64,000 nt of DNA. Source: Eledone cirrhosa. Lineage: Eukaryota. The translations under genes were made by a program, and so were the position numbers. The notes below the pieces were generated by a model, which was not told the origin of the DNA, did not search any database, and worked only from the letters and a program-made list of their open reading frames with translations. The stretch covers positions 80,042,001-80,106,000 of the forward strand of contig OZ024742.1 in the NCBI GenBank assembly GCA_964016885.1. The letters are read 5' to 3'. Below are positions 38,852 to 44,210 of the stretch, piece by piece (within the stretch, counting starts at the first letter, position 1; each line of letters opens with the position of its first letter).

Positions 38852-39360
38852 ATTCTGAGAAATGGTATGAGCATAGGCCAGAGGCGGTGATGGAGAACAA
38901 TCAGGTGAAGGTGCTGTGGGATTTTAGGATACAGACGGACAAAAAACTGGAACACAATAGACCTGACCTGGTGGTTGTGGACAAAGAAAAAAGATCGTGC
39001 CTGATTGTGGATGTGGCCTGCCCGTTCGACACGAGAGTGCAAGAGAAGGAGAGGGAGAAAATTAACCGATACCAGGACCTAAAGTGGGAGGTGAAAAGGA
39101 TTTGGAACTGCCATGAAGTCAAAGTGATCCCGATTGTCATAGGCGCACTGGGGACTATCTCCAAAAGTTTCCAGGGATGGTTAAAGAAAATCGGCCCCTT
39201 CACGCTTTTTGGAACGCTTCAAAAGGCATGCTTGCTTGGAACAGCAAGAACCCTCCGATACGTCCTGAATATCTGAGGCTGCAGGTAGTGGCTTGACATT
39301 CAATCCAACGGACTTTCCAGTTAACCAACATCAATGACTGAGATTCAAGGAATAACGGTG
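38852..39360 (+). mobile_element. 5'-truncated Dong/R4-type LINE (restriction-like endonuclease domain) within (TAA)n
   Basis: WYEH.P..V.EN...LWDF.IQTD...HNRPDLVVVDK....IVDVACPFD...EK..RYQDL; (TAA)n on both sides. Confidence 0.92.
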
Positions 39361-39388
39361 ACGATAATAATAATAATAATAATAATAA

Positions 39389-39950
39389 TGATTTATTTAT
39401 TGGCCACAAGGGCTGACATCAAGAAAAACATCACAGACGGAACAGGACGGTACGATGTGGGTTGTGTGCGTGTAAATATTTTTATTATTTATATAAGAAA
39501 AGAAAAAAGACATAAAACATATATATATATAAACAATAAAATGAAAATTGAAACAATGAAAAATTCCCCAATAGGAGGGAAACCTCCGAGGGTTACTCGT
39601 AGCGAAAACCACACAAGCGCCCTCTCTCAATTTTTCCATCTCTCAAACTACAGACGTATATTCAGAGTGGTCTCGTTCACTCGGACCATTCTTGCTACAT
39701 TCACCCACCTTTCAACAAACTTGCTAGAAAGCAGCACTTGCCTCTCCACCCTGATTTTCCTCTTCAAGTGAAACTTGAAAAAGTTAATCAGGGATTCGCC
39801 GAAGAGGAAAGTGTTTGTCTTTAATCCTTTTAACCCTGTCCACCACACAATCTCTTTCGCCATGGCCACCAGGCAGATGCAAACCGCCTGCCCTTCCTCC
39901 TCAAAGGAAGACGGCGAGACCATCTGCACAATGGACTCAGTCGACATCAA
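39389..39950 (-). mobile_element. 3' fragment of a second Tx1 family
   Basis: ORF 39648-39950 is homologous to the 19433-20014 C-terminus (AMAKEIVWWT.LKGL); terminus gcccttgtggccaataaataaa. Confidence 0.88.
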
Positions 39951-40030
39951 CTAGACCAGCAATCCACCGGAGCAATCATCGGCCATGCATCACTACCATC
40001 AACATCAAAACATCAACATCAATACATCAT

Positions 40031-40180
40031 GTTGATGGTAGTGATGCTGATAATGATAGTTTCTGCTTTGGGAGCAAGGCCGACGATTGCCCCGGTGGAT
40101 TGCTGGTGCTTTGTCTTGTTGACCCCGTAGAAGTGAGGAGCGGGGTTGACCTCGGCGGGATTCGTGCTAGGACCATAAAT
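40031..40180 (-). mobile_element. SINE 3' half plus tail with dense A-to-G substitutions on the + strand
   Basis: Aligns to the adjacent copy 40290-40410; a partial mirror copy lies at 39956-40030. Confidence 0.8.
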
Positions 40181-40288
40181 GGCAGATGCTGATGACAATA
40201 ATATTTGTAACTGCTTTTGGTACAGGGCCGGAAATTATCCCCTTGTTTCGCTGGGGCTCTGTATTATCAACTCCGTAAGATAATAATA

Positions 40289-40478
40289 ATTGTTCCTACT
40301 TTTGGCACAAGGCCAGCAATTACCCAGTGCATTACTGGTACTTTCTTTTATCGCCCCCATAAGGATGAAAGGCAAAGTTAACCTCGGCGGGATTTGAACT
40401 CAGATCATAAAGCGAGGTAACTCTATGCTTCAAAGCATGGCATCCGACCCTCTACCGATACTGCCAATCCACTGCCTT
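40289..40478 (-). mobile_element. SINE copy in (TAA)n context
   Basis: Full reverse-complement match to the family consensus. Confidence 0.9.
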
Positions 40479-40519
40479 AAGATAATAATAATCCACCGCC
40501 GTAAGATAGTAATAATAAC

Positions 40520-43500
40520 TTATAAAGAGGATTCACATTAGGAAAACATTAAAAACAGCACACAACTAACGATAAATAAATGTCACATAAATTGCCTCGA
40601 AACTTATTATTATTTTTTTTTTTTTCGTTTACAATGTGATGGTGTCACGCTAAAAACACCGGTTGTAATGTAACCATAAATTCACTAATCCTCGACATGA
40701 GTGTTTAAATGTCGAACCTAAACAGTTCGAATAACGGTGAAACGGAGACTGGAACGTCATGTGAAAGACTCTCACCCAGCAAGTGCTGCCTGGCCCAGCA
40801 GCAGGGACCTGGCTGTCATTCAAATACTGCTGGTGTTGGAGGAAAAAGAAGGAATGGGACAAGAACCAACTGGACGAAATAATTGAATAGAACTGTCATG
40901 AAATGTTATCTGAAGAGTAACCCCATAGACAAAAAAAACTATAGGAAACGGATGCATAAATTCTAGAACCTGATTGGTCTATCTATATTAGGTGAACAAC
41001 AATTGGCCGGTCAGGCTCGTGTAATAAGAAATAATGAATGGATAAGCGAGTAGGAACTGGAGGAGCTGAGCAGAGCGATAGAGTTGGAAATGGAGAGTGG
41101 AGTATATTAGGCAAATGCGCCAGTGGCAAATGAGTGTGAAGAGGTTGAGAGACCCGAGGAAGCAACCGAAGTAGACAATGACCTGAATGCTGAAATAAAT
41201 AACAACTGGAACAAAGATACGGCCATTGAGGAAATGAATGCACACGGGCTAGGACACGATTTGGTTGATATCCTGAACTTAGTGGTAGATGAAATGAACA
41301 ATGATAATGGAAAGCCTATGAACCTAAGATTTGTAGACAGGAAAACGTTGAAAGAAACAACAGCTAAGGTAAACAAGGTCATCCCATGCCTTGAGGCGAG
41401 GAACCTTCACCAATGCAACACTATCCTCAAATCAACCCCAAAGGTGGCGAAAAAATACTTTGTATAAAAACGGGAGGAAACAACAAACAAGAAAGATCAG
41501 AGCCTTGGTGGAAGAAATGACTGAATGATCAAATCTAGGAAATGACTAAAGATATTGGAAAGCTTGACTCTTTACTGAATGGGACATTACAAAACATAGA
41601 CACTAAAGACAGATTGAAAATAAAATACAAAACTAGGGGAAAAGAGCTAAATGTTATCATAGAAGGACTGAAGCAATGCATTGTAGCAACAAGCGTAAAG
41701 ATTAGGCGGTATGAGAACAGAGTTAGTCAGTATAGACAGAACCGCATGTTTGTCAACAACCAGAAGATGTTGTTTGAACAGCCTGAAGGGAAAGAAAGAG
41801 GCAACGACGTGATCCCTGAGGCGGAACAGACTAAGACATTTTGGAGAGGAATATGGGAGCAGGATGTTGAACATAATAGTCAGGCAGTGTGGATTGAGAC
41901 AGTTCAAAAGATGATAAGTGAACAAGCACACCAACAACCTGATTTGAGTATCACAGTTGAAACTCTTAAAGGGCAGGCCAAAAGACTAACCAACTGGAAA
42001 TCACCAGGGCCATATGGTTTGCAAGGATATTGGATAAAACATATAAAAAGCCCTGCACCCAAAACTGACAGCCATGTTTAATGAATGCTTGATGTCGGGT
42101 GAAGTTCCAGAGAGGTTGACAAATGGTACCACAGTTCTGGTAATGAAAGACCGAATCAAGAGTAGTGAGGCTACCAACTATAGGTATATCACTTGTCTGT
42201 TCGTTATGTCGAAAATGTTAACATGTATTGTGTCTGAGGAAATCTATCACCTCCACGTAAACAACTTGCTAACGGACGAACAGAAAGGATGCAGACAGAA
42301 GTCCCGTGGTACAAAAGACCAGTTACTTATTGATAAGATGGTAATGAGGAATTTCAAGAGGAGTCATACTGGTCTTGCCATGGGATGGATAGATTACAAA
42401 AAAGCATTCGACATGGTACCTCATTTTTGGATAACCAAAAGCCAAGATAGAGATCTTCAAGGTGGCAGACAACATCAGACAGCTATTAAGTAAAAGTATG
42501 AAGTCCTGGGAAACAGAGCTAACATCAGGTGGAGAATCCTTGGGTGGCGTTAAGATCAAGAAAGGTATCTTCCAGGGAGATAGTTTGTCCCCTTTGTTGT
42601 TTGTCCTTAAACTGCTAACCCTGTACGTCATATTGCGAAAAGTGAGAGCAGGATACAAGCTGGGAAGAGGAGAGCTTACCATCAACCACCTCCTCTTCAT
42701 GGAAGATCTTAAACTCTTTGGGAAAACTGAGAAGGAGTTGGATGTACTTGTTGACACTGTCCGTATTTTCGGCAATGATATATGTATGGTATTTGGTGTT
42801 AATAAGTCTGGAATCCTAGTGACGAAGAGGGGTAAATTGAGCAGAAGCAACGGAATCTAGGTACCAACAAGTGAGATGATAAAGGAAATTGACACTGAAG
42901 AGGGATACACATATGTAGGTGTTCCGGAGGCAGATGACATCAAGAACAAAGAAATGAAGGAATTGATGAGATCTGAATACATAAGGAGAAGAAGGAACAT
43001 ATTAAAATCACATCTAAGTAGGAATGTCATAAGTGCAGTAAATTCCCGAGTTGTGTCTATTATTAGGTACAGTGCGGGAATTCTGAAATGGAATGTTGCC
43101 GAACAAAAAGAAATGGATAGGAAGACTAGGAAGCTATTGACTATCTACAACATGTACCACAGGAAGAGTGATGTTGATAGACTCTACTTAAAAATATCTG
43201 AAGGTGGAAGTGGTCGTATCAGCATAGAAGACTGTGTGCAGATGGAGAAAAACATTCTGCACAAATATGTGGCTGACAGTAGGGAGCTAATGCTCAAACT
43301 TGTACTGAAGGAGAAGACAATAGACCAGGAGATGTCCAAGAAACAAAAAGCAAGGAGGAAGAACAAGCTTCATGAAAAATCCATTCATAGCACCTTCTTT
43401 AAGAGAACGGAATTCAGAGATCTACAGACATGGAACTGATTAAAAAGAGGGCACCTTAAGAAATCTACAGAAGCAATGCTAATGGCTACGCAAGAGCAAT

Positions 43501-44210
43501 CCCTCAGAACGAAGTGGGTGAAACAACAAATTGATAAGGAGGAGGCTAGCTCACTGTGTAAGATCTGTGGAGAGAGAGAGAAGAGATTGTGGCTCACATT
43601 GTATCCGAGTGTAAACACCTTGCCCAGACTCACTATAAAGGGTGGAGACATAATATGATAGGCATGGTGATTCACTGGCATCTATGCAAAGTAAACAATG
43701 TATCGCATTCTCAAAGTTGGTATGAGCATAAGCCAGAGTCGGTGATAGAAAACGATCAAGTGAATGTGCTATGGGATTTTAGGATGCAGACGAACAAGAA
43801 ATTAGAACACAATAGCCCTGACCTGGTGGTTTTTGACAAGGAAAAAAGAACGTGCCTGATTGTAGATGTGTCCTGCCCATTTGACACGAGAGTGCAAGAA
43901 AAGGAGAGGGAGAAAATTAACCGATACCAGGATTTAAAGTGGGAGTTAAAAAGGATTTGGAACTGCCATGTTATCAAGGTCGACCCGATTCTAATAGGCG
44001 CACTAGTTACTATCTCAAAGAGTTTGCAAGGATGGTTAAAGAAAGATTAGTCTAGCCCCGTTTTTTGGAACACTTCAAAAGGTATGCTTGCTTGGAACAG
44101 CAATAAACCTCCTATACGTCCTGAATATCTGAGGCCGCAGGAGGCGGCTTCATATTTATTTCAACAAACTTTCCACTTAAATAACATCAATGACTGAGAC
44201 TGAAAGAACA
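40520..44210 (+). mobile_element. Approximately full-length, decayed Dong/R4-clade LINE
   Basis: Single fragmented ORF with RT, CCHC and RLE domains; 3' UTR matches 39277-39355; TAA repeats at both ends. Confidence 0.9.
40860..44132 (+). pseudogene. Dong/R4 RT-CCHC-RLE polyprotein (many stops and frameshifts)
   Basis: NWKSPGP.GLQGYWIK, EQKGCR..SRGTKDQLLID, IDYKKAFD.VPH, GIFQGDSLSP, HLLFMEDLKL, CKICG...HIVSEC, PDLVV.D. Confidence 0.9.

Follow-up and report, generated by a model that had tools for sequence, protein, structure and literature searches.

A-to-I RNA editing is usually treated as non-heritable. Avian proviruses with A>G hypermutation are known, and in plant organelles C-to-U edited RNAs are retroprocessed into DNA via cDNA. 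The case described here would share with organelle retroprocessing the write-back of edited RNA to DNA, but differs in enzyme, compartment and target, and in that the organelles have no self-propagating carrier. ADAR hypermutation of viruses, as described in the available part of PMC8586724, is likewise a heritable, biased A>G change fixed by a polymerase that reads inosine as G; the present case, in contrast, concerns non-LTR retro-elements in an animal germline, with a captured SINE passenger as the target. DNA editing by APOBEC enzymes is preserved in genomic copies of retrotransposons (PMC2873906), and the resemblance lies in clusters of one substitution type that a deaminase makes during the retro-cycle and that are kept in genomic DNA. 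APOBEC clusters are, however, G>A changes from C deamination in cDNA, whereas those reported here are A>G on the RNA strand, duplex-dependent, and both inherited and extended; the accessible text of the same source places A>G clusters in RNA traces.

Transcripts of inverted Alu or other SINE copies are edited by ADAR in both arms on one strand (PMC4982230, PMC3113232), and human ADAR1 and 2 prefer 5' neighbours in the order U>A>C>G and a 3' G (PMC3113232). Such editing is known as a transient RNA change, whereas here the changes are found in DNA. A 2016 review, in the sections available, listed the role of ADAR editing in how Alu subfamilies evolve as still to be determined (PMC4982230). L1 RNA showed no editing across over 2.5 kb in the excerpted account of PMC5224506, repeat editing in squid is presented as an RNA event (PMC9068888), and in flies transposon RNA is edited in the germline (PMC12599553); the accessible portions of PMC5974252, PMC9148063 and PMC9115989 add no genomic case. 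Among the main texts covered, mostly from outside subscription journals, we found no report of ADAR edits that were fixed or extended in lineages of non-LTR elements.

In the present study we describe a 64,000-nt stretch of a 3.0-Gb genome (C3:80042001-80106000; hereafter the window) and the dispersed relatives of one A>G-rich SINE stretch within it. Comparison of these sequences makes it very likely that ADAR edits duplexed SINE passengers in retrotransposon RNA, and that these edits become fixed through reverse transcription in successive rounds.

The reference for all counts was a 192-nt SINE majority consensus from 47 ordinary copies (window and first 30 loci), which lies antisense on the + strand; its tRNA-type head, as read from the sequence, is on the minus strand. 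Segment C (40048-40182, +), an antisense SINE passenger, aligned to consensus positions 2-135, counted from the SINE tail. Here 22 of the 40 A residues were changed to G and 3 of the 39 T residues to C (Fisher p 6.6e-6), next to 5 G>A and 1 C>T; the hand count of the initial annotation, about 19 A>G changes in ~115 nt, is thus upheld, and T>C on the same strand does not match A>G. A weaker trend in the following fragment was also borne out: segment B (40195-40279, +), a second antisense passenger covering positions 1-85, had A>G at 6/24 and T>C at 3/29. The adjoining SINE (40280-40471, minus strand), 95% identical to the consensus, is an ordinary unedited tRNA-type copy with an intact B-box-like word at its head and A>G at 0/55; it was probably inserted after the window LINE copy had integrated. 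Ordinary SINE copies had a rate of 28/2496 (1.1%). Matches outside the block formed by these segments (n=221) had A>G at 133/9817 and T>C at 203/9351, and block matches (n=72) had A>G at 856/2134 vs T>C at 124/2301. Family-shared changes in segment C other than A>G were 4 G>A, 3 C>A and 3 T>C, vs 21 A>G. The tract at 40029-40060 is G-rich throughout the family and can be read as a TAA tract with G at the A positions. An unedited 28-nt SINE core has 125,334 exact matches in the genome and the B-box-like word is lost in the variant, so the change ran from SINE to variant.

In favour of an artefact of assembly or sequencing, for example polishing with edited RNA reads, it may be said that independent raw DNA support amounts to 4 reads (run X13, another sample and study) at 99+% over 39984-40237, which form 2 read pairs and possibly derive from one molecule. 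Run X4 gave only short pieces at 90-95%, and run X14 gave 0 raw reads matching the stretch. However, X1 and X2 contigs agree with 39917-40131 and 40116-40193 at every base, so that reads and two contig sets match exactly and include the unique junction, and 37 loci share the changes in nested sets, each with private decay. The A>G-rich bases are genomic and the observation is real; the probability of an artefact is close to negligible.

The passengers lie in the leader of a LINE copy that occupies 40029-44210 and is broken. Its 5'-truncation point, where homology to other copies begins, is at 40029, and the adjoining G-rich tract (40029-40047, +), shared by the family, may be read as an edited (TAA)n. 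The linker at 40515-40605 (+) occurs only in leaders of the type that carries the block. A single ORF (40709-44132, +) with RT, a zinc-knuckle-like motif and a restriction-like endonuclease is interrupted in the window copy by stops and frameshifts, and is followed by the 3' UTR and an AAT repeat (44133-44210, +). The family majority sequence has one open frame of 1140 aa with an RVT_1 match, its nearest solved structures are R2 proteins, and relatives show a zf-RVT match and a weak nuclease match. AAT/TAA runs occur at most LINE 5' ends examined, and AAT runs after most 3' ends. Upstream, homology extends for several hundred bases; the copies differ in where their 5' ends fall, and a defined 5' end follows a TAA run. 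Judged from these features, the carrier is a TAA-targeting, single-ORF LINE of R2/R4 type, which we assign to the R4/Dong clade as a working assumption; among the homologues listed, at least 120, none bears an element name. It resembles R4/Dong elements, as far as PMC3774820 describes them in the available text, in its single ORF of ~1140 aa, RT with a C-terminal restriction-like endonuclease, and TAA-repeat flanks; the likeness is one of anatomy rather than of a tree, and the carrier differs in its long leader of 1-2 kb, which accretes antisense SINEs. A Dong element with a full ORF has been noted in an octopus (PMC9115989). No Rfam family scored above gathering in 39900-40700 or in 4 loci, and an HDV-like ribozyme at the 5' end had no Rfam match in L138, L146 and L203, although Rfam models may miss such ribozymes.

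The edited stretch has at least 45 matches in the genome (40 of 547 candidates scored). Segment C is present in 37 of 50 distinct loci, with 12-23 A>G changes each; 11 loci lack it and 2 gave no match. The initial annotation had raised the possibility of a single-copy variant, and the count of block copies contradicts it. These 37 copies are spread over many contigs and both strands, and 31 of the 40 fetched block loci continue into the LINE ORF; the edited block is thus inside a retro-element, on its RNA strand, and common to dispersed 5'-truncated copies. The SINEs sit backwards in AAT sites of the leader, and the transmitted passengers are A>G-rich on the RNA strand of the element only. All 22 A>G changes in segment C of the window are shared with 5-34 other copies, so the window copy inherited its edits: 17 of them occur in at least 24 of 32-35 other copies, and the other 5 in 5-11 copies, a younger subset. 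A single-copy event is ruled out by the multi-copy variant and the shared changes.

A shared variant could also be an older G-rich SINE subfamily, or the product of GC-biased drift or conversion or of transcription-linked strand asymmetry. The variant is indeed a family feature in form, and the LINE lineage gains some C besides G. In the passengers, A>G nonetheless exceeds T>C 7- to 30-fold, and the change is always on the carrier strand in copies that lie on both strands of many contigs. Several independent captures alter different sets of A, segment B moves from near-consensus to G-rich across copies, and the hairpin copies described below contradict such an origin as well. Context bias and strand specificity therefore still hold against an ordinary subfamily, and we regard these explanations as extremely improbable.

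The inherited edits were also added to, as seen in a tree of LINE bodies from 48 copies (3 of 51 were dropped, with <800 aligned bases). The tree is a ladder, and its direction is fixed by tip lengths, which shrink with depth (rho -0.49); the timing rests on these tip statistics, and since the tips are not independent, the p values below are optimistic. In the SINE body of segment B, most of the oldest copies have 1-3 edited A residues out of 12-16, and the youngest have 5-8. The sets are largely nested, and the number of edits rises with lineage age (rho 0.77, n=28). With the tail included, rho was 0.69 for A>G and -0.21 for T>C. Even the oldest copies have segment C at ~45% editing, and the further rise is weak (rho 0.41); with four suspected recombinants left out, it is not significant (rho 0.33). 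T>C in segment C also rises (rho 0.44). Between group majorities, from old to young, the block gained A>G at 10/88 vs T>C at 2/114, and the non-SINE leader had A>G at 2/121. Age-sorted columns of the block gave 4 A>G vs 2 T>C (p 0.42) with the suspected recombinants included, and 8 vs 2 (p 0.048) with them excluded. Post-insertion singletons in the block were symmetric (A>G 11.4 and T>C 10.2 per 1000). Daughter copies thus inherit edits, and later lineages add more.

The remainder of the element behaves differently from its passengers. An ORF-wide A>G excess between group majorities (25/1216 vs 4/718) was gone in a column test over 48 copies, where lineage-borne A>G (42/1240) and T>C (25/735) are equal per base; there is therefore no overall A>G bias of the element outside the passengers. 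Lineage-borne A>G in the ORF avoid a 5' G (3/42 vs 364/1240, p 4.5e-4) and favour a 5' T (14/42); singleton A>G in the ORF show no such avoidance (115/368). Four copies (L143, L149, L151 and L175) have a leader type that conflicts with their body phylogeny, which suggests recombination or template switching between copies. A younger branch of the carrier LINE, represented by L161-L175, has lost the whole edited block; compared with young block-carrying copies, its body has 10 T>C, 5 A>G and 5 G>A. An unedited sense SINE occupies the same ORF site (body position ~2435) in L124, L149, L155 and L157, where a hotspot and shared descent are both compatible with the data.

Independent cases came from exact searches with edited motifs. 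A triple-edited motif, in which three A of the SINE core are fixed as G and from which the variant of the window family was excluded, gave 24 matches vs ~0.34 expected by chance: 19 in a sister LINE lineage, 2 in a third element, 2 in single copies and 1 ambiguous (L209, A>G 6/54, T>C 4/51). The sister-lineage copies (L187-L191, L193-L195, L197-L203 and L205-L208) captured an antisense SINE elsewhere in the leader, independently and with edits that form a separate set, and their passengers had A>G at 201/566 vs T>C at 7/560. In five of the 19, an additional stretch of passenger sequence shows editing of a distinct kind, with other SINEs alongside unedited; in some sister-lineage copies a second passenger is edited in its 3' half only. 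The two single copies from this motif had A>G at 21/53 and 15/31, and a second edited motif added two more loci with 15/45 and 17/46. L192, L196, L247 and L248 are single hyper-edited antisense SINEs, with 15-21 A>G and 0-3 T>C; L192 adjoins TAG/TGC-rich repeats that may also be edited. No adjacent partner was seen beside the edited single SINEs at L215, L192 and L248. A mirror motif for editing of the sense strand had 1 match vs ~1.5 by chance, and this lone match is a hairpin arm of the third element; hyper-editing of free SINE RNAs on their own sense strand was rejected on this search, although exact motifs miss most cases and two other hairpin arms were missed.

The third element, which we take to be RTE-like, is a short retro-element. 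Its copies share one 3' end, followed by a microsatellite tail, but differ at the 5' end. We fetched 30 of its loci with a query that held an edited arm, so that edited copies rank first; 20 of them carry a SINE at one AAT site. In 4 of these 20 the SINE is an inverted pair, whose antisense arm is partial and whose sense arm is complete: L186/L211 (C1:4542885), L213 (C2:230592809), L214 (C3:295242461) and L210/L216 (C17:942751). Both arms are changed on the host strand, with A>G at 11/31, 11/31, 8/29 and 13/21 in the antisense arms and at 13/51, 15/49, 14/51 and 19/49 in the sense arms, and with 0-1 changes of the opposite type; the edits are partly shared and partly private. In the first copy tested, sense-arm edits fell at 18/30 sites inside the stem vs 1/21 outside (p 7e-5), and in the second at 12/32 vs 1/19 (p 0.018). 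Confinement of the edits to the duplex stem is thus observed, in the third element only, and the host body shows no A>G excess. The other 16 SINE-bearing copies comprise 15 with 0-1 A>G and one edited single SINE (14/53), and at L222 inverted SINEs that lie close together are unedited. The four inverted-pair copies are the cleanest ADAR fossils that we found.

The bases next to the edited sites follow the ADAR order. The initial annotation had described a 5'-neighbour bias in the window copy, where edited sites were 9/12 after T, 6/8 after C, 6/14 after A and 1/5 after G; depletion after G in this copy by itself has p 0.15, and the bias becomes significant when arms are pooled. Across 8 arms, editing was found at 52/77 sites after T (68%), 50/85 after A (59%), 16/52 after C (31%) and 7/34 after G (21%; G vs the rest, p 1.8e-4). 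The search motifs themselves dictated a G at 15 of the 52 sites counted as edited after T; with those 15 left out, T stands at 37/62 (60%). A 3' G was associated with editing at 28/44 sites (64%) vs 97/204 (48%), p 0.07. The order T>A>C>G in the arms fits that of human ADAR (PMC3113232). The genome has ADAR-like genes, and on C6 and on C25 a dsrm domain is combined with a deaminase domain. The initial annotation pointed to the extensive RNA editing of coleoid cephalopods, and the SINE would be in keeping with an octopus-like coleoid host.

These data bear on the idea that the RT itself misreads A as G on paired or structured RNA, with no deaminase involved. Such misreading would explain why the changes are tied to the RNA strand and to the lineage that retrotransposes, and the ORF lineage bears both kinds of transition (42 A>G, 25 T>C). 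However, the pattern is that of ADAR: 30-60% of the A residues are changed per stretch while other errors are near zero, the changes end where the stem ends, and the 5' neighbours rank T>A>C>G. The same signature occurs in two different carriers that were probably copied by different RTs. We consider misreading improbable, with a small chance of being correct.

In the mechanism that we favour, ADAR editing of passengers, an antisense passenger captured in the leader of a retro-element would form dsRNA, and ADAR would deaminate the duplexed passenger RNA in germ cells. The RT of the element would then read I as G and write G into germline DNA, and over successive rounds of retrotransposition the daughters would inherit these edits and gain more. 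In the third element, the duplex is probably intramolecular, between the inverted SINE arms. Folding of 4 LINE leaders revealed no long stretch with which the block could pair inside the same RNA. In the LINE, the duplex would probably form in trans with sense SINE RNA, which is abundant, or else with a flanking copy transcribed along with the leader. Pairing in trans with sense SINE RNA would also account for antisense passengers being edited and free SINE copies not (24 vs 1 motif matches). None of the runs listed for the stretch is an RNA run, which speaks neither for nor against editing. The sequence of dsRNA formation, ADAR editing and fixation by RT put forward by the initial annotation is therefore well supported, but its proposal that a single hyper-edited SINE RNA was integrated at this site is not: the process is inherited and repeated, with three or more carriers, and is not one event at the window.

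The window copy also has a fold-back of its own. An inverted, stuttered copy of 40029-40047 and 40074-40107 lies at 39955-40028 (minus strand) and already carries the edits, with arms that are 100% and 91% complementary. The whole of 39955-40107 looks like a templated fold-back with stutter where two LINEs join, with a DNA hairpin z of -10.3. This structure was rejected as an ADAR substrate: the bases that it duplicates had been edited beforehand, and it is missing from other copies. An adenosine deaminase that acts on DNA during or after integration, either on a fold-back single strand or on the DNA side of an RNA:DNA hybrid, would likewise give strand-specific A>G in paired regions, and the DNA fold-back at the 5' junction of the window copy offers a candidate site. 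However, with first-strand cDNA as the target, the element strand would show T>C, which is opposite to the observed change; the changes of the window copy occur in copies without the fold-back, and resident inverted or single SINEs are unedited. Deamination of DNA is thus very improbable.

As we read them, the loci are direct genomic evidence that hyper-edited RNA was reverse transcribed into the germline, survived there and was re-edited in later rounds; editing did not stop these elements from moving. For one animal, this would answer the question left open for Alu, at least in the available text of PMC4982230, namely whether ADAR editing shapes the evolution of retro-elements. Beyond this, we think it likely that ADAR is a recurrent, targeted germline mutagen, such that SINE passengers carried backward or as inverted pairs are hyper-edited, still move, and ratchet their edits through lineages (in three or more carriers, besides several single copies), leaving a datable fossil record; the edits may also aid escape from SINE-directed silencing. 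The ladder of copies records when germline ADAR acted and with which neighbour preference, and A>G clusters confined to one strand, in passengers that are carried along or in inverted pairs, provide a simple genome-only test for any species.

The surroundings of the window copy are themselves composite. The fold-back is joined to the 3' end of another LINE (39390-39954, minus strand), which has no Pfam match and is presumably L1/Tx1-like, and the 3' end of a sister RLE-type LINE, 85% identical to the carrier and with an ATA repeat at its end, lies at 38853-39360 (+). Across 38853-44210, and at many other loci, elements of three types (two RLE LINEs, the L1/Tx1-like LINE and the SINE) pile into TAA/ATT microsatellites in fixed orientations, forming nested arrays. 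The upstream leader, which the truncated window copy lacks, is A/C-rich (for example at L146:1790-2470, numbered along the element), with CAA, CAG and CCA tracts that resemble T>C-converted microsatellites. It shows partial complementarity to the G-rich tract that precedes segment C, and its A/C-rich tracts may be old fold-back copies of edited sequence.
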